A stretch of DNA of 64,000 nucleotides. Source: Dehalococcoidia bacterium (GTDB lineage Bacteria > Chloroflexota > Dehalococcoidia > UBA2979). The position numbers and the translations under genes are program-made. Numbering within the stretch: the stretch's first letter is position 1; each line of letters opens with the position of its first letter. Of the stretch, positions 4,903 through 63,759 are shown one piece after another. The stretch lies in contig JAQWMB010000019.1 in NCBI GenBank assembly GCA_029246995.1, positions 3,483 to 67,482 of the forward strand. The letters run 5' to 3'. The notes under the pieces are model-generated. The model ran no database searches, was not told the origin of the DNA, and worked only from the letters and a program-made list of their open reading frames with translations.

Positions 4903-5127
4903 ATGTCTTCTGGTAAATGTGATTTTTGTGAAAAAGTTGTGGTCTTTGGTCGTAATATTCGACATAAGCACTCTGGTAGATGGGAACGTAAAGCTCCTAA
5001 GACTAGCAGGCAATTTCGTCCAAATGTACAATCAAAGAAAATGATTATTGATGGTAAGCGACAAAAAGTTAATATTTGCACAAAATGTATCAAAACGCAG
5101 ATGAAAAATTTTATCCTCGCGAATTAG
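4903..5127 (+). CDS. rpmB: 50S ribosomal protein L28
   Basis: 74-aa basic ORF. CDFC...FGRNIRHKHSGRWERKAPKT..RPNVQ matches the L28 pattern, with a second CTKC pair (zinc-ribbon type). It is divergent from the yloV-like gene. Confidence 0.8.
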   Translation: MSSGKCDFCEKVVVFGRNIRHKHSGRWERKAPKTSRQFRPNVQSKKMIIDGKRQKVNICTKCIKTQMKNFILAN

Positions 5128-5810
5128 TTTTCACAAATCCCCCGAATTTTTTCTTGCAAATAATGTACTGTATTTTGTCGGTCTAAATCATCATTAAATA
5201 TTGCTGAACCCATCACTACATTACTCGCACCAGCACTTATGCAGAGTTCTAAATTATCCTCTTTGACACCACCATCTACTTGAAAATTGATAGGAATTTC
5301 TATTTTCTTTTTTCTCATGAAATCTTTTATTTCTTTGATTTTTTCTAAGGAATTAGTGATCATTTTTTGTCCACCAAAACCAGGATGGACAGTCATAACA
5401 GTTACTTGATTTAATTCACCGATGTATTTTGTGATTGCTTCAACTGATGTTTCAGGATTAATTGCTAAAGCAAATTCTTTATTATTTTTATGCGTTATTG
5501 AAATTAACTCACTAGGATCTGCTATTGCTTCTATATGAACAATAATCTTATCTACGCCAATATCTATAAATTTTTGTACCTGTTCATGTGGATTTACAAC
5601 CATTAAGTGTACTTCTATTGGTATGTTTGAAATAGATTTTATTTTTTCTACAATATCTTGGCCAAAAGAAATTTGTGGGACGAAATTGCCATCCATTATA
5701 TCCAAATGCCAACAGGCTAATTCTGGATTTTCTACAGATTTAATTTCTTTTTCAATTTGCAAGTAATCCATTGTTAATATCGATGGAGCAATTTTAACAA
5801 TAGATTTCAT
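5124..5810 (-). CDS. rpe: ribulose-phosphate 3-epimerase
   Basis: 228 aa with motifs APSILTMD, HLDIMDGNFVP, MTVHPGFGGQ and VDGGV. Confidence 0.9.
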   Translation of the reverse strand: MKSIVKIAPSILTMDYLQIEKEIKSVENPELACWHLDIMDGNFVPQISFGQDIVEKIKSISNIPIEVHLMVVNPHEQVQKFIDIGVDKIIVHIEAIADPSELISITHKNNKEFALAINPETSVEAITKYIGELNQVTVMTVHPGFGGQKMITNSLEKIKEIKDFMRKKKIEIPINFQVDGGVKEDNLELCISAGASNVVMGSAIFNDDLDRQNTVHYLQEKIRGICEN

Positions 5811-7216: not shown

Positions 7217-7236
7217 ATTTTACTCCTAGAAATGAA

Positions 7237-8460: not shown

Positions 8461-9670
8461 TTTGTTCCTCTCTTATTGCTTCTGCAATGCTTTTTTCAAT
8501 AATTTTTTTTGCGTCTTTCAGTTGTTTTGTAGATACATTGAGTGGAGGCATTATTCTTAGAACATTTGGCCTCACTGGATTTATTAAAAGGCCATTATTT
8601 ATACATCGTTGAGCAACTTGGGGTGCTATATTTTCTTTTAGTTCAATGCCTCTCAACAATCCCATACCTCTTAATTTAACAACATCTTGATTATCTTGCA
8701 GTAATTCAGTTAGTAGATTATTTAAAATTTTTGATGTGCCTTTTATTGACTTCATCATATTAGTTTTAAAAAGTTTATTAGCAACATAATATGCCCCTGC
8801 GCAAGTCAGAACATTACCACCAAATGTACTGCCATGGTCCCCCGGAGTAAATACATCAACTTCTTTAGTACACATGATGCCTCCAATAGGTAAACCTCCT
8901 CCTAATCCTTTTGCAGTTGTCAGAATATCAGGTTTAATTTTGTTATGCTGATGAGCCCAAGCTATTCCAGTTCTTCCCATACCAGTTTGGATTTCATCTA
9001 GAATCAGAAGTATATTATTTTTATTGCACCATGTTCTTACTCTATTTAAATAATTTTGATTAGGTGTTACTACTCCACCTTCACCTTGAATAGGCTCGAG
9101 TAAAATAGCTACTGTTTTTTTTGTTGTCTTTTTTTTAATATCTGCAATATTATTAAATTCAAAAAATTTAAAACCTTCTAATAGTGGCTCGAAATCTTTT
9201 TTATAATTTTGATTATCTGTTGCTGAAATAGTTGCTATAGTTCTGCCATGGAAACTATTTTTTGCCACTAGTATTTCATATGCACCTTTTTTATTCGCCT
9301 TGCCCCATTTTCTAGCTAGTTTAATGGCTGCTTCATTTGCTTCTGCTCCTGAGTTGCAAAACCAAATTTTATCCATTTTTGCAGATTTTAAAAGAATTTC
9401 TCCAAGAGCAATCTGTGGTTCTGAATAAAAAATATTTGAGATATGCACTAATTTTTTTGCTTGCTTTGAAATTGCTACAGCAAGTCCGCTATCTGCATGT
9501 CCAAGTAGATTAGTTGCAATTCCACAAATGAAGTCTAAATATCTGTTTTCTTTGTCATCCCAAACATATGCACCCTTCCCTCTAATTATTGTTATAGGAA
9601 TACGGTTAGCAACCTGCATAAAAATTTTTGCTTCTTTACGTTTTATATCCTTCAAGGCATTAAGTCCCAA
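8453..9670 (-). CDS. argD: acetylornithine aminotransferase (class III PLP aminotransferase)
   Basis: 405 aa with LILDEIQTGMGRTG and TTAKGLGGG (PLP lysine). Sits within the arg operon. Confidence 0.88.
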   Translation of the reverse strand: MGLNALKDIKRKEAKIFMQVANRIPITIIRGKGAYVWDDKENRYLDFICGIATNLLGHADSGLAVAISKQAKKLVHISNIFYSEPQIALGEILLKSAKMDKIWFCNSGAEANEAAIKLARKWGKANKKGAYEILVAKNSFHGRTIATISATDNQNYKKDFEPLLEGFKFFEFNNIADIKKKTTKKTVAILLEPIQGEGGVVTPNQNYLNRVRTWCNKNNILLILDEIQTGMGRTGIAWAHQHNKIKPDILTTAKGLGGGLPIGGIMCTKEVDVFTPGDHGSTFGGNVLTCAGAYYVANKLFKTNMMKSIKGTSKILNNLLTELLQDNQDVVKLRGMGLLRGIELKENIAPQVAQRCINNGLLINPVRPNVLRIMPPLNVSTKQLKDAKKIIEKSIAEAIREEQNV

Positions 9671-15359: not shown

Positions 15360-16400
15360 ATGAACCAAGGAAAAAAAATTCGTCTTTCTTCATTTGCAAA
15401 TTGTGCTGGTTGAGGAGGTAAGTTAAGTCATAAGACTCTTGAACAGGTTTTGTCCAAGCTCAATGTAAATGAATCAGATGAAGTACTCGTAAGTAGCAGT
15501 ACATTTGATGATGCTGCTGTCGTTAAGATTAGTGATAATATTGCTATGGTTCAGACAGTTGATTTCTTTCCTCCAGTAGTCGATGATCCATATCTTTATG
15601 GTAAAATTTCAGCTGTTAATGCATTGTCAGATATTTATTGCATGGGGGCAAAACCAATTACTGCTTTAAATATTTTTGCTGTTCCAGAAGATCTAGACGA
15701 AAAATACATTACAGAAATTTTACAAGGTGGCAATGATGCCGTTGAAGATGCTGGTGCAGCAATAGTTGGTGGGCATACTATTATAGATAAAGAGCCAAAA
15801 TATGGATTAAGCGTTACAGGTATTATAGATCCTAATAACGTAGTGACTTCTAGTGGTGCGTTAGTTGGCGATGATATTATTCTTACAAAAAAAATTGGCA
15901 CAGGAATTTATTTAACTGCTTTTCAAGATGATCAATTAAAAGAGAATGAATATGATGAGTTAATTGCTTCAATGGTTCATTCGAATAAAAAAGCTTCTGA
16001 AATTGCAATATCACACAATGTACATGCAATGACTGATGTCACTGGTTTTGGTCTCTTGGGTCATTTGAGTAATGTAGCCAATGCAAGTAAAGTCGCTATT
16101 AGAATCAATAGTAAAAATATTCCAGTATTTAATAATTTTGAATCGTTAGTATTTCAAGGAGTTACTACTGGTGGTTTTGTTAGAAATTATGAAAGTTTTA
16201 ATCAAAATATATTCAATTTATCAAACATGAATACTCTTGCTCAAATGACTTTATTAGATCCACAAACTTCTGGTGGATTATTGCTTTTTGTAGATAGCAA
16301 TAAGACAAAAAATATATGTGAGGATCTTAAAAAAGCAGGGGAACATGCATTTATAATAGGAAAAGTAATTGAAAAAAATAAAAGCCTCATTGAGTTATGA
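15360..16400 (+). CDS. selD: selenophosphate synthetase, selenocysteine-containing (in-frame TGA at 15411-15413)
   Basis: The track ORF starts at TTG 15450. The frame is open from ATG 15360 if TGA 15411 is decoded, giving MNQGKKIRLSSFANCAG-U-GGKLSHKTLEQVL. This matches the SelD glycine-rich loop, with Sec at the Cys17-equivalent position and Lys at +3. Downstream SelD/AIR-synthase-like motifs are DDAAV, DFFPPVVDDPYLYGKISAVNALSDIYCMG and VGGHT. Confidence 0.9.
15422..15458 (+). promoter_or_regulatory. candidate bacterial SECIS region downstream of the selD UGA
   Basis: There are two alternative imperfect hairpins. One is 15422-15444 (core GUC/GAC-type stem with an AUAA loop and bulges). The other is 15438-15458 (CUUGAAC / GUCCAAG with one mismatch and loop AGGUUUU). 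I did no folding energy calculation. Confidence 0.35.

Positions 16401-16434: not shown

Positions 16435-16436
<2 letters not shown>
16381..16436. terminator. bidirectional Rho-independent terminator between convergent selD and groEL
   Basis: AAAGCCTCA-ttgagtta-TGAGGCTTT (16381-16406) is followed by a T-run on the plus strand and an A-run reads as a T-run on the minus strand. A second perfect 20-nt palindrome, AACTATATAATTATATAGTT (16413-16432), is followed by TTTT. Confidence 0.75.
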
Positions 16437-18117
<1,681 letters not shown>

Positions 18118-18153
18118 CTAAACTAATGAGCTTTTAGCTCAGTTTGACTTATT

Positions 18154-18180
18154 TTAGCAGTCTTTTCTTCAGACTGCTAA
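18154..18180 (-). promoter_or_regulatory. CIRCE-like HrcA operator upstream of groEL
   Basis: TTAGCAGTC-N9-GACTGCTAA is a perfect 9-bp inverted repeat with a 9-nt spacer. The CIRCE consensus is TTAGCACTC-N9-GAGTGCTAA. It lies 52-78 nt upstream of the groEL start. Confidence 0.8.
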
Positions 18181-18245
18181 AATAGTTTCTTGAATCAATC
18201 AATCTAGCGCAAGGGGTAGGATTGTTTTTTTTTGAATTATTTAAA

Positions 18246-18575
18246 TCATAATTTTTTTACTGCATTGATTGGCCAGTATCTAAAAACTGGCTTTCCAATA
18301 ATTTCTTCATTATTAATAGTGCCAAAATTACGACTATCTATGCTGTCGTCTTGGTTATCACCCATTACGAAATACCGATTGATCCCTTTTTCAGATGATA
18401 TTGTAGCCACTCTTTTAATGAATATTTCATTTTGTTTATAAAAAACAATGATATCATCTTCATTTATTTGCATTTTATGACTAAATTTTCGAATAATTAA
18501 CCAATCACCATCGTTTATTGATGGCTCCATTGAATGCCCTGCAATTTTTACTGTGCTATAGCTCAAATCAATCAA
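18246..18575 (-). CDS. sodX: S26-type signal-peptidase-like protease SodX (NiSOD maturation protease)
   Basis: 109 aa with the catalytic Ser motif GHSMEP, a later Lys (FIKRV) and GDNQDDSIDSR. It is immediately downstream of sodN. The start is TTG. Confidence 0.8.
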   Translation of the reverse strand: MIDLSYSTVKIAGHSMEPSINDGDWLIIRKFSHKMQINEDDIIVFYKQNEIFIKRVATISSEKGINRYFVMGDNQDDSIDSRNFGTINNEEIIGKPVFRYWPINAVKKL

Positions 18576-18601
18576 TCTACAAAACTAAGGTTATATTTAC
18601 T

Positions 18602-19036
18602 TTATTTTTTTGTATCCCAAAATATTTTTGCAAATTCAGCAACCTGTTCTCTTAGTTTTTTTGCATCTTCGAGACTAGTGCCTACTCTACATGCAGAAGC
18701 TGTTTTTAAAATGTTCCATGTTTTATCATGAATATCTGGATATTGTTCTAAATGTGGAGGTTTAAAATAGTCACCCCATATGATTCTTACTTCATGCTTT
18801 ACAATTTCAGCATGTTTCTCTTTAACATCTACATAACGAGCCATAGAATTAAGAGCATCTTTAGAGTTAGTTTCTTCTAGATCAGCTATTAATGACATCA
18901 TTTTTTCAACAGTTTCTGCTGCTGTTTCTGCTGCTTTTGGATCATAAATCCCACAAGGTATGTCACAATGAGCAAAAGCAGTTTCCCTAGGAATAAAATT
19001 TAGTTTAATTTTATTAAATAGATTATTATTTTTCAT
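18602..19036 (-). CDS. sodN: nickel-containing superoxide dismutase precursor
   Basis: 144 aa. The Ni-hook HCDIPCGIYDP follows a 22-aa propeptide (..ETAFA|HCD..). Confidence 0.93.
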   Translation of the reverse strand: MKNNNLFNKIKLNFIPRETAFAHCDIPCGIYDPKAAETAAETVEKMMSLIADLEETNSKDALNSMARYVDVKEKHAEIVKHEVRIIWGDYFKPPHLEQYPDIHDKTWNILKTASACRVGTSLEDAKKLREQVAEFAKIFWDTKK

Positions 19037-23935: not shown

Positions 23936-24994
23936 TTATTCTGATAAGCGCTTAGAAATGTATAGTAATGTTTCTCTTAAAAATGCATATCCAGGTAGAG
24001 CGAACAATAGACCAAAGAAACCAAACAGATATCCGCAAATGACTAATAAAAGTAGTGTTATTGCTGGCTGTACATCAATAGTATCAGAATGAACTTTTGG
24101 TACTAAGATTAAATTTTCAATTAATTGAATTGCAAAATAAATAAGAATTACAGGGAGTATTAGTCCAGAATCAAAACTTAGTACAATAAGTAATGCTGGT
24201 ATTAAAGCAATCCATGGACCAATAACAGGAATTAATTCTGTTATACCGGCTATGATTCCTAAAGCAAATGACATTGGAACATCAATAATAGTTAATGCAA
24301 TCCCAGTTGCAATTCCTACAACGATAGCTAGAATAAATTGCCCTCTAAAATAATTTCCGATTATTTTTTCAAAAATACCAATAACATTTTTGATATCTTT
24401 ACTCATATGATCTGGGACAATCTCCAATATATTCTTTTTATTGAAAGTATCATCTCTCATTACATAGAACATCCAAAATGGAGTTAACAAAAAACCAAAA
24501 AGAATTGCAATTGTATTTGTAAGATAACTTATGAAATTCTTGGTAAATTGAGCAATATTATCTGATAATGTTAGACTTACTTCTGAAAGGTAGCTATCTA
24601 TCTGGACTTGAGTTTCGATTGGCACTTGATTTCGATACTGGTTTAGTAAATCAATAAATTGAACTCTCGCTTTTTCAGTTATTTCTGGTAGGTCATCTGT
24701 GAATTGGATAACTTGTTTGGAAATTCCATCTCCAATGATTAATAGTGTCATTAAGGTTATTATTCCTAAAAAGCCGTATACAAAAATGATGGCTATCATT
24801 CTTTTCAATTGCGGAGATGCTATTCCAGATTTTTGTATCAAGGTGGCAGTTCGATTTACAAGTGGTTTTAAGATATATGCGAGGATACCACCTATGAAGA
24901 ATGGAATCAGTGCTGTGCGTGCAAGCCAGACCATTGTAATTATAATAGCTGCGACACTTAACCAAAGATAAAAAAGGAGATGGTTTTTTTTCAT
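23936..24994 (-). CDS. AI-2E (PerM/UPF0118) family transporter
   Basis: 352 aa, polytopic, with a characteristic ELIPVIGPWIALIPA segment. Confidence 0.72.
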   Translation of the reverse strand: MKKNHLLFYLWLSVAAIIITMVWLARTALIPFFIGGILAYILKPLVNRTATLIQKSGIASPQLKRMIAIIFVYGFLGIITLMTLLIIGDGISKQVIQFTDDLPEITEKARVQFIDLLNQYRNQVPIETQVQIDSYLSEVSLTLSDNIAQFTKNFISYLTNTIAILFGFLLTPFWMFYVMRDDTFNKKNILEIVPDHMSKDIKNVIGIFEKIIGNYFRGQFILAIVVGIATGIALTIIDVPMSFALGIIAGITELIPVIGPWIALIPALLIVLSFDSGLILPVILIYFAIQLIENLILVPKVHSDTIDVQPAITLLLLVICGYLFGFFGLLFALPGYAFLRETLLYISKRLSE

Positions 24995-25052
24995 AAATCA
25001 AAGCAATCTAAATATATTTTTTATGAGTATAATGTTAGCAGATTACTTATGT

Positions 25053-51254: not shown

Positions 51255-53663
51255 TTAATTAAATATGTTTTTTTCTTCTAATTCTTCTATTTCTTTGCTG
51301 GATAGATGCAGGACATTTGCAAGAATTTCTTGAGTATGCTCACCTAAAAGTGGAGCAGGGACAAGTAATGATTTTAAATTATCAATACGCCAAGGTACAC
51401 CGGGATGTTTTACGGTCCCGCCGGTTGGATGATTGGTTTCAATAATAAATTCTCTGTGTATCAACTGAGGATCAGATAATAAGTCATCTGGCTGTAAAAT
51501 TGGACCTGATTTAATTCCTTTTTTTTGTAACTTTGTTGTTAATTCAAGGTTAGTAAATGATTGCGTCCAAGATGCAATTATATTTTCTAATTCATCTTCA
51601 TGTTTTTTTCTATTCTCATTTTTATTGAATTTATTTGAGTTAAGGATTTCACTAGCTATACAATCTTTTAATTGCTCCCATTCTTCTTCAGAAGTTATTG
51701 AAATTGCAATCCATCGATCATAACCTCTAGTCGGAAAAAAACCATGCGGTGCATACTGATCACTTCTATTACCAATTCTGCTATGCTGGACATTGTTTAA
51801 TGTCGTATCGATAATAGCATTTGGAATTAAAGTGAGCATTGGTTCAAACATTGAACCATCTATGTATTGCCCTGTGTTTGTTAATTGAGCATCGATTAGT
51901 GATGCTATAATTGCGAAAACACCATAAGACCCTGCCAATGGATCTGGCATCACCGCTCCTAAAATTCTAGGCATGCCATCTTGATAGCCAGTTAGCTCAG
52001 CTACTCCACTAAATAAATTAATTGCACTATGTAATCCGCCATGACTTGCCATTGGCCCACTTCTACCAAAGGCTCCAAGTGATAATTGTACAATTTTAGG
52101 GTTTAATTCTCTAATGGTTTCTTTAGAAAGACCTAGCTTACTCATTACGCCTGTTTTGAAGTTATCTACCACTACATCAGCAGTTTTAATAATTTCTTTT
52201 GCAAGCTTTCGAGCTTCTTCGTTTTCTAGATCTAGCTGGATACTTTTTTTACCTTCGTTTAATAAATTGAAGTGGCCACTGTTATTATAGTGGTCCTCAT
52301 TATTAGCAAACGGAGCTGTCACACGAGTAGTCATATGTTTGCTAGTTTCAAATAGAATAACTTCTGCACCCATGCGTGACAGCCATTGCGTTGCAAATGG
52401 AAGAGCAACCACTTGTCCGAAGTCAGCTATTCTTATTCCTTGCAAAGGCAGCGTTGATTCTTTATTTTCTATTTCATGCAAAATAAGAGGATGCCTCTCG
52501 GATGACCATTGTAGATCATTATTAGATTGGTCTGGGTTTATTGAATGAATTTGAATTGGTGTTTTTTCTAATTTCATTTGTGGACCAGGCATACTAAATT
52601 TCTTTTTGTTGATATTTAGATTTAAAATACTTTCACGTTGTTTAACATGCTCAGAATTAAGCATGTCGCGAATACTGTAATATGCAAAAAATGGCAAACC
52701 ATTTTTATCAGCTAATTGAATAATCTCTTTTCCAGATAACTCCATAGTCCAATTGATAATTAATTGCCTCAAGGCATCCCAATTGGCTGTTCGATCGTAC
52801 ACATTAGCAAAAACTTCAGAATCTGCCCAATCTGGATTATCCATCATAATTTTCAATTTCTCCCATTGATGATCCCAAGGTGCAGCAATTGCAACATACC
52901 CATCTTTACAAGGAACATAATAATTTGGCATTCTTGATAATGACGTTGGCAATCGTCCAATAAGTAATTCCCCATAGGCCCAGGCAGTTAAATCCCTTTG
53001 TTCATAAGAAGCGACTGCTTCTTGTATGCTGACATCAACATGATGCCCATTCCCACTGTTGATTCTCTCAAATAATGCTAGGATTGTTGCATCAGCACCT
53101 ACAATTCCAGCAATGGATTCAGCAATATTTGTATTTGGATGTAATGGTGGCTCATTTTCTTGGTCAGTAACTACATCTGGTACTCCAGGAGAAGCATATG
53201 CCATGCCACTCATAGCATATACAATTAATTCATCAGCAAAAAAATCTGAATAAGGACCATCTAAGCCAAATGGGGTAATTGTAGTAAAAACTAATTTTTT
53301 AAATTGTGTAGTAATTGTTGCTGGGGTTAGCCCGATTGCATCTAAATCAGCAAATGAAAAATCTGTAATCAAAATATCAACAGTATCTAAAATATCCAAT
53401 AATTTTTCAAAGTCAGGTTTGTCATAAACATCAAGAGTAACTGATCGTTTATTTGTACTCGTATAGATAAACGATCCACTAAATTTTAGGTCCTCTTGAT
53501 TATCGGGGAATGGTCCAATTTTTCTTAGTGGATGGCCATCGTGATTCTCGATAATGACAACCTCTGCGCCATAATCGGCAAATTGCTTTGCTGCAATTGC
53601 ACCGCTGAATCCTTTTGTTAATTCAAGGACACGTAATCCTTTTAGTGCAGAAGAGTCACTCAT
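51255..53663 (-). CDS. double-domain family III (CaiB/BaiF) CoA-transferase
   Basis: There are two CoA-transferase III N-terminal signatures: LKGLRVLELTKGFSGAIAAKQFADYGAEVVIIE, and at about residue 430 LQGIRIADFGQVVALPFATQWLSRMGAEVILFE. ATG 53663 is preferred over track start 53738 because it gives an 8-nt overlap with the upstream stop. Confidence 0.8.
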   Translation of the reverse strand: MSDSSALKGLRVLELTKGFSGAIAAKQFADYGAEVVIIENHDGHPLRKIGPFPDNQEDLKFSGSFIYTSTNKRSVTLDVYDKPDFEKLLDILDTVDILITDFSFADLDAIGLTPATITTQFKKLVFTTITPFGLDGPYSDFFADELIVYAMSGMAYASPGVPDVVTDQENEPPLHPNTNIAESIAGIVGADATILALFERINSGNGHHVDVSIQEAVASYEQRDLTAWAYGELLIGRLPTSLSRMPNYYVPCKDGYVAIAAPWDHQWEKLKIMMDNPDWADSEVFANVYDRTANWDALRQLIINWTMELSGKEIIQLADKNGLPFFAYYSIRDMLNSEHVKQRESILNLNINKKKFSMPGPQMKLEKTPIQIHSINPDQSNNDLQWSSERHPLILHEIENKESTLPLQGIRIADFGQVVALPFATQWLSRMGAEVILFETSKHMTTRVTAPFANNEDHYNNSGHFNLLNEGKKSIQLDLENEEARKLAKEIIKTADVVVDNFKTGVMSKLGLSKETIRELNPKIVQLSLGAFGRSGPMASHGGLHSAINLFSGVAELTGYQDGMPRILGAVMPDPLAGSYGVFAIIASLIDAQLTNTGQYIDGSMFEPMLTLIPNAIIDTTLNNVQHSRIGNRSDQYAPHGFFPTRGYDRWIAISITSEEEWEQLKDCIASEILNSNKFNKNENRKKHEDELENIIASWTQSFTNLELTTKLQKKGIKSGPILQPDDLLSDPQLIHREFIIETNHPTGGTVKHPGVPWRIDNLKSLLVPAPLLGEHTQEILANVLHLSSKEIEELEEKNIFN

Positions 53664-54543
53664 TTTCTTCCTCGTCAGGCAACAAGGCAGATTTTGACCA
53701 ACTTCTTGGATCTCTTGATGGCCATGAATCATCTTCAACTTGATTTAAAAATTTTTCAATCATTTGATTAAATAGATCAGGCTCTTCAAGATTTACGGTA
53801 TGTCCAGTATTTGGAACAATAAATAATCCAGATGTAGGAATACATCTTTTCATAAAAATCGATGGTTCAAGGCAGGGCTCATCTTCATCACCAGTAATTA
53901 TTAATGCAGGTATATTAATTGCTTTCATTTCTTTTTCTAAAGAAAGAATTGAAGGTCGATTTCTTTGAACTCCTAACATTGTATTAGCATGTCCTAAAGA
54001 TGAAGAATTTTGAAAAAGTCTCTTAAATTCTTCCCAAGCTTTTCGGTCTTTGTTTTGAAGTTGAACTCTCGTAGCACTGACAGTATAAACATCTCCAAAC
54101 TTTTCGATACCTTCTTGAAGTATTCGATTTGCAACATGCTCTGCATCTTTTTCAAAATTACTACGGTCTTTTGTGCTGCCATATCCAACGCCCGCAATTG
54201 TTATAGATAAACATCTTTCAGGGAACTGAATCCCAAACAAAAGAGTAGCATAACCGCCCATCGACAATCCTATAATGTGTGCTTTTTCAATATTTAATTC
54301 ATCTAATATAGATAGAATATCCTGTACAGCAATGTCTTGCGAATAACTTTTCTCTGATTCTGGTACATCAGATGGAGGATAGCCACGAGCGTTATAGGTA
54401 ATTGCTTGATATTTTTCAGAAAAATATTCAACTTGCTTTGCCCAACTAGCGTGCTCTCCAGCAAATTCATGTACAAATACTACTGGAATTCCTGAACCAG
54501 TAACTTCGTAATATAATTGCACGTCATTATTTGTTAGCGACAT
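53656..54543 (-). CDS. alpha/beta hydrolase
   Basis: 295 aa with the oxyanion VVFVHEF, the nucleophile elbow GLSMGG and a C-terminal PNTGHTVNLE. Confidence 0.85.
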   Translation of the reverse strand: MSLTNNDVQLYYEVTGSGIPVVFVHEFAGEHASWAKQVEYFSEKYQAITYNARGYPPSDVPESEKSYSQDIAVQDILSILDELNIEKAHIIGLSMGGYATLLFGIQFPERCLSITIAGVGYGSTKDRSNFEKDAEHVANRILQEGIEKFGDVYTVSATRVQLQNKDRKAWEEFKRLFQNSSSLGHANTMLGVQRNRPSILSLEKEMKAINIPALIITGDEDEPCLEPSIFMKRCIPTSGLFIVPNTGHTVNLEEPDLFNQMIEKFLNQVEDDSWPSRDPRSWSKSALLPDEEENE

Positions 54544-54571
54544 TGACTATTTTTCTCTTTTTAATTATGAA

Positions 54572-55573
54572 TTATTTATTTCCGAATGTTTCAAAAATCT
54601 CGTCATAATATTGGAGATTCACCTCATGCTCAACGCCATGCCTTGGAGAAAAGAAAATAACTCTATCTAAAACCCCGTCATATCTGCCTACTTGGTCTCG
54701 AACATCTTGTGGAGTTCCATATAAACAACATGAATTTAACATATCATCACTAATTGCATCAGCAACATTTTCCATATCACCTGTACGAAATGCTTCTCTC
54801 ACTTCAACTTTTTCTTTTTCCCATCCTCCAGCATCAAAAATATTATCAAAGGCTTTTGGAGAAAGATAAAAACCAAGATTCTTTGCCGCATCACGTCTTG
54901 CAATAGATCTGTCTTTATGAATTGCTGTAATCACATCACTGGAAAAATTAAATTCATTTCTTTCTCTCGATCGCTCTTGTAAACCTTCACCAATAATTGG
55001 AAGCACTGAATTTTTAAGATGTTGCATGCTATTAATTGGATGACCAATTAAACCATCAGCGACACGTCCTGCTACTTTTAATGAAAACTTATTAACCGCA
55101 GCTAAATATATTGGTAGTGGATGCTTGCAAACGATACCTCTCGATCCTCTAAGTTGAAAGAATTTTTTTTCCCAAACCACAGGTTCTCCATTTAATGACA
55201 TTACATGTTTAATCAATTCAATAAATTCTTGTACTCTTGGTGCGGGATGCTCAGCTTGATCACCAAAAATTCCGAAAAAACGATTTAACTGTGGTTTTAC
55301 TCCTGATCCAATGCCAAACATGCATCTGCCATCAGATAATTCTTGGAGATCGATCATGCTGACGATGTGAGCTATTGGATTCATTAAAGGTTGCACAACT
55401 ACAGCAGTGCCAAGTTTGATTTTTTTTGTTGCTTGCGCAAAAGCTGCTAGTCTTACGTATCCTTGCGGACCACTGACCCATGCACTTTCAAATCCTGCTG
55501 CTTCAGCTTTTTGAACTATTTTTAGCCCTTCATTAATAGGAATTTCTATTGGGGCGATTCCATATTCTGGCAT
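54572..55573 (-). CDS. luciferase-like (LLM class) flavin/F420-dependent oxidoreductase
   Basis: 333 aa with a TIM-barrel LLM pattern (AEAAGFESAWVS...; GIGSG). Confidence 0.75.
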   Translation of the reverse strand: MPEYGIAPIEIPINEGLKIVQKAEAAGFESAWVSGPQGYVRLAAFAQATKKIKLGTAVVVQPLMNPIAHIVSMIDLQELSDGRCMFGIGSGVKPQLNRFFGIFGDQAEHPAPRVQEFIELIKHVMSLNGEPVVWEKKFFQLRGSRGIVCKHPLPIYLAAVNKFSLKVAGRVADGLIGHPINSMQHLKNSVLPIIGEGLQERSRERNEFNFSSDVITAIHKDRSIARRDAAKNLGFYLSPKAFDNIFDAGGWEKEKVEVREAFRTGDMENVADAISDDMLNSCCLYGTPQDVRDQVGRYDGVLDRVIFFSPRHGVEHEVNLQYYDEIFETFGNK

Positions 55574-55630
55574 AAATTTCTCCTTAATTGTTATTGAATA
55601 AAGATAGCTTGATTATCTACACATTGTACA

Positions 55631-56719
55631 TTATTGAAATGCAGGAATAATTTCTTTTCCAAATTTTTTCATTGATTCTTGTACTTTTACTTGATCCATG
55701 TCGCCCCAATCAAAACAAGCCATTAAGGAACGGATATCTTTTTTATCAAGTTCGTCAATTTTTTCTTTTACAGTTTTTACTGAACCATAAATAACACCTC
55801 TTTGTAGGTAATCGGCAACTCCCTCATCTGGAGTAAAAACTGGGGAGCTCCATTTTTGTGAATCGTGACCCTTGGCTTTTTCCTCTTGATTGCTTTCCTC
55901 TGGGTTAAATTTTGCTCGTGTAGTTAGTAGATGTTTACGCAACCTGTGTGTAGGCTCTTGGACATTTTCATAAGCTTCTTCATCTGTCTCAGCAACATGA
56001 ATACTGCGTTGTAAAGTGGAAATGTTTAAATTATTTTGTACACTTTGCTCAGAATGACCAGCAGACTCCATTTGTTCTTTATAGAAATTTAATCTTTCTA
56101 CTGCTATTTCAATTCCCATTCTTGGGAGCATAATTGGACAATTGTTAATTGCTGCCCATGCTAATGTTTCGTTAGACGAACCAGACATTTGGATGAGAGG
56201 ATGTGGTGTTTGTACTGGCTTTGGTCTTACGCCAGGTATTGAAAGATTGAAAAAATTGCCATTATAATTTAGTGGCTCGCCATTTGCTTGCCATGCTTTT
56301 TTCATATAATCAACTCCTTCAAACATGCGTTCTCTATGTTCAGTTTCATCGCCATCAACTCCGAATGCTACATATTCAAATTCGTTAAATTTTGAACCAC
56401 GCCCAATTCCTACAGTTAGTCTTCCATTCAATAGATTATCCAATAAGCTTGTTTGTAAAAGAATACGAGTTGGATGATGGATAGCCATTTGCAATATAGC
56501 AAAACCTATTCGTATTTTTTTTGTTCTTTGTGCAAGCGCTGCAGCCAATGGTATGGGGTCTCCATATGCGTCTTCTCCAGTAAAGTTATGCTCAGTCAAC
56601 CAAGCACATTCAAACCCAAGATTTTCTGCTAATTCAATACAGTCAAATTGCTGATTAATAACTCTGTAATCTTCTTCTGGAGATGGACTTAAAGGTAAAT
56701 GGAAAGTTCCGAATTGCAT
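55631..56719 (-). CDS. luciferase-like (LLM class) flavin-dependent monooxygenase
   Basis: 362 aa with MQFGTF...AENLGFECAWLTEHNF and GIGRGS. Confidence 0.78.
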   Translation of the reverse strand: MQFGTFHLPLSPSPEEDYRVINQQFDCIELAENLGFECAWLTEHNFTGEDAYGDPIPLAAALAQRTKKIRIGFAILQMAIHHPTRILLQTSLLDNLLNGRLTVGIGRGSKFNEFEYVAFGVDGDETEHRERMFEGVDYMKKAWQANGEPLNYNGNFFNLSIPGVRPKPVQTPHPLIQMSGSSNETLAWAAINNCPIMLPRMGIEIAVERLNFYKEQMESAGHSEQSVQNNLNISTLQRSIHVAETDEEAYENVQEPTHRLRKHLLTTRAKFNPEESNQEEKAKGHDSQKWSSPVFTPDEGVADYLQRGVIYGSVKTVKEKIDELDKKDIRSLMACFDWGDMDQVKVQESMKKFGKEIIPAFQ

Positions 56720-57708: not shown

Positions 57709-59259
57709 ATGAAGTGTTTAAATAGATTTTATAACATTTTTGAAAGTTTGCTTATGTCACAAAAATTAATTATTGCAACTCCTCCAACAACAAATGGATT
57801 TGACGCTGAATCAAGGGGCTTAAACGGTCTCTTTATTAGGATGTGTTATAGTAGATTGTTTGCGTATCCTGCAATTGAAGATGAGGATGGCAATCTAGTG
57901 GGTGATACTTCTAAAGTTATTGGAGTACTTGCTGATAGCTATGAAGTTTCAGAAGATAAAATGACTTATCTTGTCAATCTTAAGAAAGGCATTAAATCAT
58001 TTTATGGCAATGAATTGACAGCTAAAGATGTTGTATGGGGGTGGCAGAGAGCTTTTGCACTAAGAGATGTGGGTAAATGGGTTGCAATTATTGGTTCAGT
58101 TGTAAGTTCTGACTCAGTTGAATCGATTAGCGATTATCAAGTTAAATTTTCTTTAAGAGCCCCAAATCTAACCTTTTTACAACAATTAACTCGTGTTACT
58201 CCAGTGATTAATGATTCTACTGAAGCGTTAAAGCATGTTACCTCTGATGATCCTTGGGCCAGTAAATGGCTTTTTTCTAACCCTTGTGGATTTGGTCCAT
58301 ATCATCTTGATTCTCTTGATCCATGGAGGCAGGCGACATTTACAATAAATCCGAATTTTTATGAAGCACCTAATATTAAAGAAGTACAAGTCTTATTTGA
58401 ATCTAGCTCACGAAAGCGTGCCGCATTGCTTTCACAAGGAGAAGTAGATCTGATTCCAAACTTAGAAACTTCCCTTAAAGAATCATTGACAAATCAAAAC
58501 AATATTGTTGTAAGTCAAATTCCTTCAGGTAGGCATGCCGTTCTTGGTATGCATTTTAATCATAAGCCATTTGATGAACCATTAGTTCGTAAGGCAATTG
58601 CTTGTGCAATTCCTTACGATGCGATCATACAAGAGGCTTATCATCAAGCAGCTCATCGTTGGACCAGTCCAATGCCAATGGGAACACCCATGGCACTTGA
58701 TGTAGATTGGCCATACAATTATAACTTAGAACAAGCTCAAAAATTTCTTTTGCAGACTGACTACAAAGATGGATTTGAATCTGATTTATTTGTAGATGCA
58801 GCTGATGCAGAACACGTTGCGATGGCTGAATTAATCGCCCATTCTTTAAAAAGCATCAATATAAATATCAATATTGAAAAAATGGAGTCAGGATTATTTT
58901 GGGCTGGCGCTAGATATTTCAGACCATTTTCAATGTTAATATATGAAGATCTGCATCAAGTCCCTGATCCTTATTATACTTTAGTGCATGATTACACTAC
59001 TGGAGGAATGGGCCTTATTAATGTTGGTCAGTATCATAATGAAGAGTTAATGGATATTATAAAATCAATTGAATCCGCTGGTGTTATAGGGGAGCGTCAG
59101 GTCTTAGTAGAACAAGCACAAGAAATTATTATCGATGATTGTCCTTATGCAAATTTAGTAGCGCCTGATTTCCTAGCTGCACATAGTAGTAAAATAAATA
59201 ATTGTTATTGGGCTCCTGATCGGAGCTTAGCAGTTGAAAAAATCTCTTTTAAAAATTAG
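57709..59259 (+). CDS. family-5 ABC substrate-binding-protein homologue with no signal peptide (start uncertain: 57709 or 57754)
   Basis: 516 aa with an SBP_bac_5-like pattern (DSYEVSEDKMTYLVNLKKGIKSFYGNELTAKDVVW). The N-terminus, from either candidate Met, has no hydrophobic or Tat signal. Confidence 0.7.
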   Translation: MKCLNRFYNIFESLLMSQKLIIATPPTTNGFDAESRGLNGLFIRMCYSRLFAYPAIEDEDGNLVGDTSKVIGVLADSYEVSEDKMTYLVNLKKGIKSFYGNELTAKDVVWGWQRAFALRDVGKWVAIIGSVVSSDSVESISDYQVKFSLRAPNLTFLQQLTRVTPVINDSTEALKHVTSDDPWASKWLFSNPCGFGPYHLDSLDPWRQATFTINPNFYEAPNIKEVQVLFESSSRKRAALLSQGEVDLIPNLETSLKESLTNQNNIVVSQIPSGRHAVLGMHFNHKPFDEPLVRKAIACAIPYDAIIQEAYHQAAHRWTSPMPMGTPMALDVDWPYNYNLEQAQKFLLQTDYKDGFESDLFVDAADAEHVAMAELIAHSLKSINININIEKMESGLFWAGARYFRPFSMLIYEDLHQVPDPYYTLVHDYTTGGMGLINVGQYHNEELMDIIKSIESAGVIGERQVLVEQAQEIIIDDCPYANLVAPDFLAAHSSKINNCYWAPDRSLAVEKISFKN

Positions 59260-59274
59260 ATTAGTGAACTAAAT

Positions 59275-60519
59275 TTGTTAAAAAAACTTTTTCCTAATAT
59301 TTATGAAGGCTGGATTGTCGTTGTGGCATCAAGTTTTATCATGATGCTATCAGGTAGCACTTTCTTTTATGGCCTTAGTGCTATTTTTACTTCATTGCTA
59401 ATTGATTTTAATTGGAGTGTTGCTTCATTGTCCTTAGCCTTTTCTTTAAGAACTGAAGTCCAAGGCCTTACGGGCCCAATCATAGGTTTAAGTATTGATA
59501 GGCTTGGCCCAAGGTTTACAATTATTATGGGTATTTTAATCGCAGGGATTGCACTTTTTTGTCTTTCTCTAATTACAAACTTAGTACAATTTTATATCGT
59601 CATGTTAATTTCTGCACTTGGCATTGGAGCAGCAGGAGGACAAGTAGGGATGGCTGCTGTAGTTACTTGGTTTTCAAAGAAAAGATCTAGGGCACTCTCA
59701 ATAATGACAGTCGGTGGTGGTATATCTGGTGCATTAGTATTTATAGTTGCATGGCTAGTTGAATTTTATGGCTGGCGAACAGCAGTGCAAATCTTATCAA
59801 TATATTATTTATTAATGGGGTTATTTTTTGCAATCAATGTTAGATCTCGTCCAGACAACCATCATCAACCAATTGATGGCATTATTTTGGAATCAGAAGA
59901 CAAGATTTCACATGTCGCTCGTGGAGTGGGCTTACGCCAAGCATTAAAAACTCAATCACTTTGGGCTATAGCTTTTTCAACATCCCTGTGCTTGTTTGCT
60001 GGAGTGCCCGTCATTCTTCTAACAATCCCATTCTTAGAATCTCTTGAATACCCAAAGACTACTGCGAGTATTGGTATGATTGCATTTACGATTTCTACTG
60101 TTCTTGGGCGATTGGGCTCTGGTTATTTAGGAGATAAGTATAGTAATAAATTAATTTTACTGATTGGATACATACTTGTTAGTATTGGCACTGGGTTATT
60201 GTTTTTTGCACAAGATATATATTCTACTATGTGTTTTCTTTTAATTATTGGACCCGGATTTGGTGCAACAATTCCTCTTAGAGCATCATTAATAGCTGAA
60301 TACTTTGGTACTATTAATTTTGGTACTATTAATGGCTTTGTTGTCTTTATATCAACTTTAGGAGCTGTTTTTGGTCCATGGATAGTGGGAATAATCGTTG
60401 ATTCTTCAGGTAGTTACAGTTTAGGTTGGTTGATTTCAGGCATTGTTGCATTTTTAGCAGTTCCTGTTTTGATGATATTTGTAAAACCAATAGAAAAGTG
60501 TAAGGATAGCAATTTATGA
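59275..60519 (+). CDS. MFS transporter (oxalate/formate-antiporter-like class)
   Basis: 414 aa with 12 predicted TM segments. TTG start. Confidence 0.8.
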   Translation: MLKKLFPNIYEGWIVVVASSFIMMLSGSTFFYGLSAIFTSLLIDFNWSVASLSLAFSLRTEVQGLTGPIIGLSIDRLGPRFTIIMGILIAGIALFCLSLITNLVQFYIVMLISALGIGAAGGQVGMAAVVTWFSKKRSRALSIMTVGGGISGALVFIVAWLVEFYGWRTAVQILSIYYLLMGLFFAINVRSRPDNHHQPIDGIILESEDKISHVARGVGLRQALKTQSLWAIAFSTSLCLFAGVPVILLTIPFLESLEYPKTTASIGMIAFTISTVLGRLGSGYLGDKYSNKLILLIGYILVSIGTGLLFFAQDIYSTMCFLLIIGPGFGATIPLRASLIAEYFGTINFGTINGFVVFISTLGAVFGPWIVGIIVDSSGSYSLGWLISGIVAFLAVPVLMIFVKPIEKCKDSNL

Positions 60520-61342
60520 ATAAAAAAAGTTATTTGTTAATAATGTTAATCTTACTTATACAGATTCACAAAATGGATATCCAGTTATTTTTCAACATGG
60601 TTATACAAATTCAAAAAAAGTTTGGCAAGAAATTACTCCTCATATTCAATCTGATTATAGATGTATAACCTTTGATTCAAGGGGTTGTGGTGAAAGCGAT
60701 AGGCCAATTGATGGATTTACATTAGATGGGTATGTTAAAGATATAATTAGCTTGGCAGATAAACTTAATATTGATAAATTTCACTTTGTTGGCCATAGTA
60801 TGGGTGGCTTAATTGGTATGTGGTTAGCACATTGTTTTCCAAAAAGAATTGATAAAATGATTTTAATTGCACCTGCTCCTTCAGTAGGGGTGAGAGATGG
60901 ATTACTATTTGATGACATGATGAAGCGAAATCGAAGAATTAGAAAAGATCAAGATATAGATTTATTAATAAAAGAAAGAATAAAAACTTCGAGTTTACCA
61001 ATCACTGAAGAGCAAGCTAGAGAACGATCTCTTGATTTTTTAGATGTTAGTGATGAACATTTTGAACAATCTGGAAAAATGATTGCAAGTGCAAATATCA
61101 GAAAAGAATTAGAATTAATAACTAATGATGTAATGTATATTGTTGGAGCAGCTGATTTTTTATTGAAAGATAATTTAGAAGATTTTTTAGTAATGAAGAA
61201 TGCTTCATTGCATGTATTTAGTAGAATAGGACATAGTATTCCTCGAGAAATTCCCATAGAATGCTCACAAGTAATAAAAGATTTTTTCAAACATGGTGTT
61301 GTTAATTTCAAAACATTAACTCAAAAAGTAAGTGATTCATAA
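60516..61342 (+). pseudogene. alpha/beta hydrolase with its reading frame broken at an A7 tract (60522-60528)
   Basis: ATG 60516 overlaps the MFS stop (ATGA). Reading ATG AAT AAA AAA then shifting -1 (equivalent to A8) gives MNKKKLFVNNVNLTYTDSQNGYPVIFQHGYTNSKKVW...FDSRGCGESD..., which is continuous with track ORF 60752-61342 (GHSMGG nucleophile elbow). The 76 conserved codons 60524-60751 contain no ATG, GTG or TTG. Confidence 0.8.
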
Positions 61343-61343
61343 T

Positions 61344-61862
61344 ATGCCTATTTATACATTAGGAAACTTATCTCCAAAAATTCATCCAGATGCATACGTT
61401 GCTCCATCGGCAGATATAATCGGCGATGTTACTGTAGAAGCAAATGCTTCTATTTGGTTTGGCGCGGTGCTTAGAGGCGATTCGGGTCCAATTGTGATAG
61501 GTGAAAATTCAAATATTCAAGATTTATGTATTTTGCATGAAGCTGTTACGATTGGTAAAAACTGCGTATTAGGTCATGGAGTTCTTGCACATGGCATAAC
61601 CATGCATGAAGGAGCTGCTCTCGGCAATGGCGCATTGGTTCATGAAGGAAGTGCCATAGGAGCTGGTGCTATTGTCGCTGCAGGTTCTGTTGTAAATGCA
61701 AATACTATAATACCAAAAAATACTATTTGGATGGGTATTCCAGCAATATTGAGAGGCCAGGTTCCAGAAAGAATTTCTAGCCGATTTAAAAATACGTTAA
61801 GTGATTATTTAGAACTCAAAGTTCAATATGCAAATAGTCTTATAGAAGAGATTGAAAAGTAA
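61344..61862 (+). CDS. gamma-carbonic-anhydrase-like / PaaY-like left-handed beta-helix protein
   Basis: IHPDAYVAPSADIIGDVTVEANASIWFGAVLRGDSGPIVIGENSNIQD..ILH is the typical gamma-CA family N-terminus. ATG 61344 lies 1 nt after the upstream stop. Confidence 0.85.
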   Translation: MPIYTLGNLSPKIHPDAYVAPSADIIGDVTVEANASIWFGAVLRGDSGPIVIGENSNIQDLCILHEAVTIGKNCVLGHGVLAHGITMHEGAALGNGALVHEGSAIGAGAIVAAGSVVNANTIIPKNTIWMGIPAILRGQVPERISSRFKNTLSDYLELKVQYANSLIEEIEK

Positions 61863-61883
61863 TTTTTATGGTATAATTACTTT

Positions 61884-62933
61884 ATGAGTAAACACAATTA
61901 TACTGTTTTAGAATCAAATAGTTCTCAAGAAATTTTATTAGAATTACGTGATAATAATCTATGGATTGGTCAAGATGATTTATCATTAAAATTGAATTGG
62001 ACCTTAAAGCCTGAAGGTCTTTGTAAAGAAGAAATATGTGTACCTGTTAAGCAACCGACTTTATTATCTTCGGATAGTCAAATTAATTTAATGCAATTTG
62101 CTCAAGAGCTTAATCGTCCCCTTACTTTAGAATTAAATAAAAACGTAGTCTTTTTAGGAGAATCAGCGTATGACCGCTCTGTCGCATTGTATTCTCAGCA
62201 AGCACCAGAAATTACACTTCCCGATTTAGATGGAAATCTACATAATCTATCTGAACATTTTGGAAAAAAATTATGCTTAGTCGTTCATGCTTCATGGTGA
62301 GGATGCAGACAAGATTTGCCAGTTTGGCAGAAAATATACTCTGAATTATCTAATTACAATTTTACAGTTTTTTCTGTAATGGAAGATAAGAATATTGATG
62401 ATGCTCGCCCTTGGATAGAGGGAGCCAATGCTGAATTTCCATGTACAATTGATACTAAACATATTGTTTCAGATTTGTACAACATGTTTAATGTCCCTAC
62501 AATAGTTTGGATTGATGAATCGGGAAAAATAGTACGACCAAATGATGTTGTAGTTATGAATGAAAGTGGAGCTAAGCTTGTTAAAGTTGATCCAGAAGAA
62601 TATATTCAAAAGATTAGAAATTGGGTTATTAATGATTCAAGCCCAGTTTCTTCAAAGGATGAATTCATTAAATTAAAAAATCAAAGAACTCCTGCAGATA
62701 AAGAACAATTGGCGAGAGCAGAATTTGCATTAGGACAATGGTTGTTTGATAATAAGGAAATTAGTTTAGCAGGTAATCACTTTGAACGTGCGACTGAATT
62801 ATCTCCCGCTGATATCATGATACAAAGGGGGACTATGTCAATGAGAGGCATGGATCCTATGAAAGATTATGGTCCCATTGCTGGTGAAATAATACAAAAG
62901 GGATTTAAGCTGTATAGACCTATTAGAGATTAG
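61884..62933 (+). CDS. thioredoxin-fold (TlpA/ResA/redoxin-like) selenoprotein, W-U-G-C redox motif (in-frame TGA at 62298-62300)
   Basis: Track ORFs 61884-62300 and 62316-62933 are in the same frame (offset 432 nt) and are separated only by the TGA. The joined sequence reads APEITLPDLDGNLHNLSEHFGKKLCLVVHASW-U-GCRQDLPVWQKIY...FSVMEDKN...FPCTIDTKHIVSDLYNMFNVPTIVWIDESGKIV. This is the canonical redoxin pattern with Sec replacing the first Cys of WCxxC. Confidence 0.85.
62315..62331 (+). promoter_or_regulatory. candidate SECIS hairpin downstream of the UGA in the redoxin selenoprotein
   Basis: UUUGCCA-GUU-UGGCAGA. The core is 5 Watson-Crick pairs (62317-62321 with 62325-62329), extended by a U.G and a U-A pair. 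It starts 14 nt after the UGA, and the loop contains G. Confidence 0.5.
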
Positions 62934-62949
62934 TATTTGAGGAGATAAA

Positions 62950-63759
62950 ATGACTTATAAAGACTATGAAACTTTAGTGATTGATTTTACTGGTTATGTT
63001 GCAACTGTAAGGATGAATCGTCCAGAAAAACTTAATGCATTTGATCAAATAATGGGTAAAGAGTTAATTAAGGTTACAGATGATTTAAAAAACAACGATG
63101 ATGTGAGATGCATTATTTTGACTGGAACCGGTAGAGGATTCTGCTCAGGAGTCGACTTAGGTCAAGATAGAACACCAGCAAAAGAAAATATTTTCAGCAG
63201 AGGAATGCTTGATGAGCATGGTTTTAGTGGTCGCGTGGCACTAGCTTGGAATGAAATTGATAAGCCAACTATTGCTGCTATTAATGGCGTTGCGGCTGGA
63301 GGTGGTCTTGGTTTAGCAATGCTTCAAGATATACGAATAGCTGCTGAATCTGCAAGATTAATTCCAATCTTTTCAAGACGTGGGATTGCACCAGAACTTG
63401 GTATGAGTTGGACTACACCTAATGTTATTGGATACAGTAAAGCTCTCGAATGGTTTTATACAGGAGATGAATTATCTGGTCAACAAGCTTTTGATTTAGG
63501 TGTTGCAAATCATGTAGTAGAAGATGCCAGGCTACAAGAATATGCTTTAGAGTTAGCTACAAAGATATCTGAATGGAGCTCTCCTATAGCAACAAGGCTC
63601 ACAAAACGGACAGTCTATGCTAGCTTAAACTCAGATAGCTTAAGGCAACATTTAATTTATGAAGCTATGAATGTAGGTCTAGGAAGTTCTACAGAAGATA
63701 CTGTGGAAGGGCGTGCATCTATTATTGAAAAAAGAAAACCTGAATTTAAAGGTAAGTAA
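62950..63759 (+). CDS. enoyl-CoA hydratase/isomerase family protein
   Basis: 269 aa with GVAAGGGLGLAMLQDIRIAAESARL. Confidence 0.88.
   Translation: MTYKDYETLVIDFTGYVATVRMNRPEKLNAFDQIMGKELIKVTDDLKNNDDVRCIILTGTGRGFCSGVDLGQDRTPAKENIFSRGMLDEHGFSGRVALAWNEIDKPTIAAINGVAAGGGLGLAMLQDIRIAAESARLIPIFSRRGIAPELGMSWTTPNVIGYSKALEWFYTGDELSGQQAFDLGVANHVVEDARLQEYALELATKISEWSSPIATRLTKRTVYASLNSDSLRQHLIYEAMNVGLGSSTEDTVEGRASIIEKRKPEFKGK

Follow-up and report, generated by a model that had tools for sequence, protein, structure and literature searches.

A predicted three-domain selenoprotein with a U-G-C active site, annotated as two open reading frames, in a marine Dehalococcoidia bacterium

A family of predicted selenoproteins designated "Prx-like (UGC-containing)" was listed by Zhang and Gladyshev in 2008 in the selenoproteome of the Global Ocean Sampling (GOS) sequences (PMC2398784). 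The family was assigned to pfam00578 with the motif UGC, in which U is selenocysteine (Sec), and comprised 46 selenoprotein sequences and 855 Cys homologues. Dataset S1 of that publication contains reads with ..GWTLKPEGLCQDDTCV.. and ..SSWUGCRHDLPVWQ... In the parts of the publication drawn on here, the family and its motif are listed, and the N-terminal domain, the selenocysteine insertion sequence (SECIS) and the function are not described. The UGC-containing Prx-like family is also listed in a 2026 review. Here, a member of this family is reported that is encoded at positions 61884–62933 of a 64,000-nucleotide (nt) stretch of contig JAQWMB010000019.1 from a Dehalococcoidia bacterium; the whole stretch is referred to below as the window. 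The gene is called as two open reading frames (ORFs) because an in-frame UGA codon is taken as a stop. The sequence evidence points, at a probability of about 0.93, to a single gene whose product is a cytoplasmic selenoprotein of three domains, in which Sec occupies the first position of the active site; a predicted SECIS element lies downstream.

When the window protein was compared with four GOS reads using BLASTP, 33–41% identity was obtained over residues 7–349, covering all three domains, with E values of 2e-24 to 4e-53. Shared features are U-G-C within the pfam00578/cd02966 fold, the flank SSWUGCRxDLPVWQ, the N-terminal motif GWxxKPEGLCxxxxC and the C-terminal helical region. The window member differs in its low identity to the published reads and in its origin from a marine Dehalococcoidia lineage of low G+C content (33%, as for the window). 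Both the literature and the databases already contain this selenoprotein with its motif and three-part architecture, and the family has been a predicted selenoprotein family since 2008. An earlier note on this DNA had singled out the architecture as unusual; the three domains are real, but they are standard for the described family, and the N-domain motif is already contained in the 2008 GOS sequences.

A second described relative is the NCBIfam model NF041054 ("ResA-like WAxxUGC motif-containing protein", WAxxUGC_long, 354 positions), which matches residues 28–227 and a second stretch of the window protein (E = 7e-65). The two share a length class, the UGC motif and clear homology, whereas the window protein has H-A-S-W-U-G-C in place of W-A-x-x-U-G-C, with His for the first Trp. 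ResA, TlpA, DsbE (CcmG) and StoA share with the window protein the thioredoxin fold with its ResA-type insertion, the Trp before the nucleophile and V-P-T at the cis-Pro position. They differ in having CxxC rather than CxC (UGC) and Cys rather than Sec. Unlike these proteins, the window protein has two extra domains and is devoid of a signal peptide or membrane anchor and of cytochrome-maturation neighbors. The peroxiredoxins (AhpC/TSA, PrxQ) are distinguished by the signature PxxxTxxC(U), which is absent from the window segment KKLCLVVHASWUGC, and the PrxQ/BCP models match with E values of about 1e-2 to 1e-7. Searches of the literature on the WAxxUGC motif and on the core sequence of the SECIS gave no results, and no experimental characterization of the UGC family was found in the publications consulted.

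The features of the gene, all on the forward strand, are as follows.

61884..62933 (+): complete selenoprotein gene, 349 residues plus the TAG stop, called as two ORFs of 138 and 205 residues
62298..62300 (+): UGA codon for the predicted Sec139, proposed to be the attacking residue within W-U-G-C-R; 13 orthologues have Cys here, and 84 gene copies have TGA
62304..62306 (+): Cys141 (TGC), the proposed resolving residue of UxC, present without exception in 70 family members and aligned to the second Cys of ResA through a one-residue deletion
62315..62331 (+): predicted SECIS hairpin, with stem 62316–62321/62325–62330 and loop GUU at 62322–62324, encoded by Leu145-Pro-Val-Trp-Gln149
61884..62168 (+): β-rich N-terminal domain (about residues 1–95), with an AlphaFold2 predicted local distance difference test (pLDDT) of 94.4 on the window sequence
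62181..62558 (+): TlpA/ResA-like thioredoxin-fold core (about residues 100–225), from Pfam, PDB profiles and Foldseek
62559..62930 (+): all-helical C-terminal domain (about residues 226–349) with one TPR-like repeat (EQLARAEFALGQWLF...HFERATELSP), from a sub-threshold TPR_2 match and the model of the Cys homologue P0004

The upstream ORF begins at ATG 61884 and contains 138 codons before TGA 62298–62300, in the context ..CAT GCT TCA TGG TGA GGA TGC AGA.. (..LVVHASW-TGA-GGA-TGC.. with the preceding codons translated). The ORF at 62316–62933 is in frame with 61884 (432 nt, or 144 codons). The next in-frame stop after the TGA is TAG 62931–62933, and the read-through product is 349 residues long. 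When the TGA was replaced by Cys, the Pfam families AhpC-TSA (E = 3e-13) and Redoxin (E = 4e-9) matched residues 105–217/220, spanning position 139. The earlier note had read the two adjacent ORFs as one thioredoxin-fold selenoprotein of 349 residues, with the first ORF ending at the redoxin active site and the second continuing the fold in the same frame. Each part of that reading agrees with the present results: the TGA falls where the active site is expected, frame arithmetic and Pfam place the second ORF in the same domain, no further stop precedes the TAG, the Cys orthologues are continuous, and the hairpin is kept in the Sec forms.

Relatives were collected from a search of 5.8 billion proteins, which returned more than 190 sequences in two classes. 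More than 100 are full-length Cys homologues of about 346 residues with A-S-W-C-G-C-R, which align over 99% of the fused 349-residue query. The second class consists of "fragments" of 205–207 residues that correspond to the downstream ORF; the downstream half of the window protein is 81 and 78% identical to P0001 and P0002, respectively. When the DNA of five "fragment" relatives was retrieved, each was found to have an upstream ORF of 138–146 residues ending in TGA at W-[TGA]-G-C-R. These loci span G+C contents of 34–36% (L001, L002) and 74% (L003–L007). A HMMER search of 1.84 billion cluster representatives with the 138-residue upstream ORF of the window as the query gave 536 relatives. Among the best 150 of the 536, roughly 125 are proteins of about 135–145 residues in which the match reaches the last residue (P0243 ends in ..VAYASW), and about a dozen are full-length forms of 303–443 residues. 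The top match, P0241 (a 4677-residue repeat protein, E = 2e-35), owes its score to the addition of 23 weak matches to a 32-residue stretch and was discarded as an artefact. It illustrates that whole-sequence E values are misleading for repetitive targets.

A locus scan with one genome per GTDB species provided 80 loci, in which the codon at the U position is TGA in 67 and TGC or TGT in 13; the Cys orthologues aligned at this position, for which the earlier note had called, are therefore the latter 13. Nine of the 67 TGA loci contain tandem TGA-containing copies. In total, 84 copies of the gene have TGA at exactly this codon (the window, L001–L012 and most of L014–L087) with G+C contents of 33–75%, compared with 13 copies having TGC or TGT. 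The Sec forms are found in about eight phyla overall, with hosts among the Chloroflexota (Dehalococcoidia, Tepidiformaceae), Binatia, Rokubacteria/Methylomirabilota, Dormibacterota, Myxococcota, Acidimicrobiia, Thermodesulfobacteriota and Acidobacteria. They exceed the Cys forms by roughly 5–10 to 1 across soil and marine uncultured phyla. No nonsense mutation, sequencing error or pair of independent genes can account for the pattern of TGA across the orthologues. The earlier note had allowed that orthologues might truly end at the TGA beside a separate downstream gene; this was not borne out, since the same TGA split recurs within the 84 copies.

The tandem copies lie about 1.1 kb apart in L012, L014, L029, L030, L031, L033, L037, L039 and L043 (at about 4800–7000 in each), which belong to the Tepidiformaceae and related Chloroflexota. 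Both copies of these pairs carry the U-G-C TGA and the SECIS hairpin.

The hairpin in the window, UUUGCCA-GUU-UGGCAGA at 62315–62331, has 7 bp, a 3-nt loop and a folding energy of -6.4 kcal/mol. It begins 14 nt past the TGA, at exactly the coordinates given in the earlier note. The core element UUGCCA-GUU-UGGCAG occupies 62316–62330, and one extra pair extends it to 62315–62331. With the U of UGA numbered as nt 1, RNAalifold returned a single consensus hairpin, CUGCC-NGUNU-GGCAG, at nt 19–33 for 79 unique Sec-form sequences, and no such consensus hairpin for the 13 Cys forms. All five pairs are formed in 79/79 unique Sec forms versus 4/13 Cys forms; in the other Cys forms the Leu codon is CTC, or CTG is paired with CAA. 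The conserved hairpin that the earlier note had expected in related genomes is thus present in every Sec form. The closing pair in the Sec forms is C-G (74), U-A (3) or U·G (2), with no mismatch in any of them.

The stem lies in the codons for Leu-Pro...Trp-Gln of D-L-P-V-W-Q, and the amino acids determine three of its pairs; the element as a whole is built almost entirely from the conserved peptide motif L-P-V/G-W-Q. The Leu codon of the stem is CTG or TTG in 79/79 Sec forms, while CTC is the most common Leu codon elsewhere in those genes (49%). The probability of keeping the stem from codon usage alone is about 0.33 per sequence, and the kinship of the sequences inflates any simple probability for stem retention that is derived from this value. 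Third-codon positions should nevertheless be saturated at the 35–55% protein identity found across the phyla. In the loop, G at nt 25 is invariant and is followed by U (73) or G (6). The corresponding residue is Val or Gly in the Sec forms, and the Cys forms also have Ala and Ser. Judged from these alignments, the hairpin is conserved, and it is under selection at synonymous sites only in genes with the TGA.

The 17-nt upper hairpin of the Escherichia coli fdhF SECIS is located at nt 15–31, with the essential G23 and U24 in its loop (PMC8659212). The element predicted here is similar in geometry, being likewise a short hairpin within the coding sequence immediately 3' of the UGA, with G-U in the apical loop (G25-U26 in the UGC family, G23-U24 in fdhF). 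It differs in that its stem begins 15 nt past the UGA rather than 11 nt, in its hairpin length of 15 nt rather than 17 nt, and in being a predicted element only. A scan of the whole window at the Rfam gathering thresholds found nothing, and no curated bacterial SECIS family was matched.

One gene for selenium metabolism was identified elsewhere in the window.

15360..16400 (+): selD (selenophosphate synthetase), 371 bits on TIGR00476, with an in-frame UGA at 15411–15413 (predicted Sec18) in ..FANCAG-U-GGKLSH..

This selD with an in-frame TGA had been pointed out in the earlier note. The presence of selD with its own UGA speaks for the use of selenium, and for the decoding of Sec, in this genome. 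The 55 nt past the UGA of selD gave z = +0.44 and no convincing fdhF-like hairpin, only a small AGUC-AUAA-GACU stem. The ORF at 23936–25042 (-), which has a TGA at codon 14, was also considered as selD and was rejected; it encodes a membrane protein whose start is downstream of that TGA.

The protein was modeled with AlphaFold2 using the Cys homologue P0004 (43% identical to the window protein, 64 aligned sequences) and the N-terminal domain of the window protein itself. For P0004, a pLDDT of 96 and a predicted template modeling (TM) score of 0.93 were obtained, and the model is a single compact three-domain body. The extra N- and C-terminal domains proposed in the earlier note are therefore predicted at high confidence. 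Profile matches of the core to ResA and DsbE in the PDB have E values of 1e-20 to 5e-22, and Foldseek comparison of the core with the structures of ResA, DsbE and StoA gave TM scores of 0.82–0.87. U139 aligns with the first, nucleophilic Cys of ResA and DsbE, and C141 aligns with the second Cys through a one-residue deletion (WCG-CR versus WCxPC). The correspondence to the first Cys of WCxxC that had been drawn earlier is thereby retained, but by alignment the active site is CxC/UxC and not CxxC. A probable cis-Pro loop, N203-V204-P205-T206, is encoded at 62490–62501; the cis conformation of Pro205 is probable from the fold. The residues W138, U/C139, G140, C141, R142, W148, Q149, D190, N203-V204-P205, W209-I210-D211, R218-P219 and W247 are invariant among 70 family sequences.

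The model of the N-terminal domain is β-rich with two short helices, and Cys47 (62022–62024) and Cys52 (62037–62039) are located on adjacent strands of a hairpin in the motif W39-x-L-K-P-E-G-L-C-x4-C-x-P. Both Cys residues are invariant in 70/70 aligned members. The domain belongs to no Pfam family and matched no PDB fold at E ≤ 0.001. The best PDB match, an usher N-terminal domain (E = 0.08, TM 0.40–0.47), was not significant and was rejected. Searches with the isolated N- and C-terminal domains at E ≤ 10 gave noise and the sub-threshold TPR only. The C-terminal domain, which had been described as a helical TPR-like tail, is all-helical in the P0004 model; its single repeat matches TPR_2 below threshold (E = 0.02–0.05), and weak matches to designed TPR proteins were also found. 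No signal peptide was found, as had been noted: the N-terminus, MSKHNYTVLESNSSQEILLEL, is polar, has no hydrophobic segment and forms the first β-strand of the folded N-terminal domain (pLDDT 94). An N-terminus of this kind, with no export signal, makes a cytoplasmic location most likely.

The following scheme is proposed for the recoding and the chemistry. By the standard bacterial mechanism, and in keeping with the comparative evidence, the UGA at 62298–62300 would be translated as Sec. The hairpin at 62316–62330, 15 nt downstream and with G-U in its loop, would be the binding site that recruits SelB with Sec-tRNA(Sec). Sec139 would be placed at the start of helix α1, where ResA and TlpA have their nucleophilic Cys. 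From the fold and the known chemistry of thioredoxin-fold proteins, it may attack a substrate disulfide or another oxidized sulfur or selenium species, and Cys141, one residue away, would resolve the intermediate as a selenenylsulfide. The N-terminal domain with its Cys47-x4-Cys52 hairpin and the TPR-like C-terminal domain are predicted to pack on the core and most likely confer substrate or partner specificity. Work by Woycechowsky and Raines from 2003 reportedly found CxC disulfides to be strained and comparatively oxidizing. Such a site would be suited to exchange of an isomerase-like or oxidase-like kind or, with Sec, to a fast reductase cycle. It is doubtful, though conceivable from the model, that the N-terminal domain is a new fold whose Cys47-x4-Cys52 pair forms a second redox or metal center communicating with U-G-C, which would make the protein a two-center cytoplasmic selenoenzyme.

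Other explanations for the interrupted gene were weighed. Two genuine genes would be present if the TGA were a real stop after Trp138 and a 205-residue protein were separately initiated at TTG 62316. Relatives are annotated in this manner (P0001, P0002, P0006 and others are "hypothetical proteins" of 205–207 residues with a neighbor of 138–146 residues), and UGA-GGA provides GAGGA, a Shine–Dalgarno-like sequence 11 nt before TTG 62316. However, GAGG is the automatic product of UGA and a Gly codon, and the supposed downstream start varies by lineage, being Leu145 in the window versus Val147 in the G+C-rich forms. The split would also cut the thioredoxin fold exactly at its active site, which the Cys orthologues cross without interruption, and the synonymous-site selection on the hairpin is confined to genes with the TGA. 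Two genes are accordingly a very remote prospect. Across 62299–62316, the GAGG from the UGA and the Gly codon lies 11–12 nt before the TTG or GTG taken as the start by gene callers, and it probably helps to produce the systematic split annotation. A pseudogene or sequencing error, that is, a nonsense mutation in a Cys-type redoxin gene, would find some precedent nearby, where the neighboring alpha/beta-hydrolase gene (60524–61342) looks frameshifted in an A7 run and local errors or decay may exist. This reading is refuted in practice by the same TGA in 84 independent copies across phyla and G+C contents, by the conservation of both halves at the protein level, and by the retention of a covarying hairpin.

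It is highly improbable that the UGA is decoded as a residue other than Sec, either by a tRNA-Sec-like tRNA charged with Cys or through a variant code in which TGA specifies Trp or Gly. SelB-dependent insertion of Cys is known from a few bacteria, insertion of Cys would be functional since homologues have Cys at the aligned residue, and selD is the one item of Sec machinery identified in the 64-kb window. Yet TGA is the ordinary terminator of many other well-supported genes in the window, which excludes a reassigned genetic code; selD is present and itself contains a UGA, and in many Sec-using lineages the family is already on record as a selenoprotein. A different chemistry for the same Sec gene is unlikely but carries some weight. 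The protein could be a Sec peroxidase of the GPx or Prx type, or it could handle a metal or metalloid through U139, C141 and CX4C ligands, in place of acting as a disulfide reductase or isomerase. Peroxidase activity is common where Sec is the nucleophile, and metals can be chelated by CxC motifs. The best Pfam match is AhpC-TSA, homologues are named "peroxiredoxin" by JGI, some of them have weak GSHPx (PF00255) matches, and the TlpA substrate Sco, a copper protein, is among the Foldseek matches (4txo). Against such a function, ..VVHASWUGC.. does not contain the peroxiredoxin signature, the closest structures and profiles are the thiol–disulfide oxidoreductases ResA, DsbE and StoA, and the Cys pair of the N-terminal domain is dispensable in one subclade.

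Several observations count against the interpretation as a three-domain selenoprotein of thiol–disulfide type. The conserved peptide L-P-V-W-Q, which is also present in the Cys forms, accounts for part of the hairpin, and the hairpin has no evident bulged U comparable to U17 of fdhF. The single-sequence fold of 81 nt around the TGA gave z = -0.15 versus shuffles and is not significant; for a short hairpin in AT-rich RNA such a value is uninformative, and the case for the SECIS rests on the comparative data, which are strong. No tRNA, including tRNA-Sec, was found within the 64-kb window, and selA and selB are not among its annotated genes. Scores on NF041054 are 219.6 bits for the window protein, 210–266 bits for eight other Sec forms and 281.5 bits for the Cys form P0004, all below the curated 300-bit cut-off. 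These sub-cut-off scores indicate that the window clade is a homologous sister group outside the equivalog. The Cys47/Cys52 hairpin is deleted in one Rokubacteria/Methylomirabilota subclade with a shortened N-terminal domain (L034, L041, L045, L057, L058, L059 and L069) that keeps W-U-G-C and the SECIS, and the Cys pair would therefore be accessory and not obligatory for the catalytic cycle. Finally, the enzymatic activity is proposed from the fold of a family whose members are uncharacterized.

The selenoprotein gene is part of a same-strand run at 57709–63759 that encodes an SBP_bac_5 protein, an MFS transporter, an alpha/beta-hydrolase, a hexapeptide protein, the selenoprotein and an enoyl-CoA hydratase; the intergenic gaps flanking the selenoprotein gene are 21 and 16 nt. 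Upstream on the opposite strand are two luciferase-like monooxygenases and a family III CoA-transferase. The earlier note had placed the gene in a CoA-thioester catabolic operon. That reading is weak, as it rests on one adjacent enoyl-CoA hydratase gene that is common only to the nearest relatives, L001 and L002, and the context is lineage-specific. Clustering of the flanking ORFs from 85 loci revealed no partner conserved beyond individual lineages. A recurrent alpha/beta-hydrolase was rejected as a conserved partner, being only 24–26% identical to that of the window. No ccm, res or sco neighborhood was found around the selenoprotein gene.

SBP_bac_5 and MFS genes (57709–60519 in the window) also adjoin the selenoprotein gene, in the other orientation, in Dehalococcoidia relatives with 74% G+C (L003, L005, L009 and L010, at about 6650–9660), which does not imply orthology with those of the window. 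The alpha/beta-hydrolase gene at 60516–61342 (+) is apparently frameshifted; the frame from 60524 has no start codon and differs from that of ATG 60516. Insertion of a single A into the A7 run at 60522–60528 would restore MNKKKLFVNNVNLTYTDS.., matching the 274-residue orthologue in L001. A sequencing error, pseudogene formation or slippage may account for the frameshift. The stretches at 16435–19036 (-) and 51255–56719 (-) contain GroEL, the Ni-superoxide dismutase gene sodN with an adjoining maturation protease, luciferase-like monooxygenases and a CoA-transferase. GroEL of the window is 92–95% identical to proteins of marine Dehalococcoidia/Chloroflexota metagenome-assembled genomes, including those from Tara samples. 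The gene repertoire of the window is reminiscent of SAR202-type Chloroflexota, here at only 33% G+C.

The finding is the correct re-annotation of a split gene and a new member of a known family in a low-G+C marine Dehalococcoidia lineage. Its scientific value is modest, and the biochemical function of the family is not a pressing question; the residual novelty is in the N-terminal domain and the function. What is new here is the high-confidence three-domain model, with an N-terminal domain that has no known structural relative, and the predominance of Sec forms over Cys forms in genomes of many phyla. The comparative data also provide a family-wide definition of the predicted SECIS, CUGCC-N-G-U/G-N-U-GGCAG at nt 19–33, which restricts one residue to Val or Gly in the Sec forms. 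Routine annotation wrongly splits the gene into two hypothetical proteins. Merging the two ORFs corrects the proteome of this marine Dehalococcoidia lineage and adds one selenoprotein to its selenoproteome.

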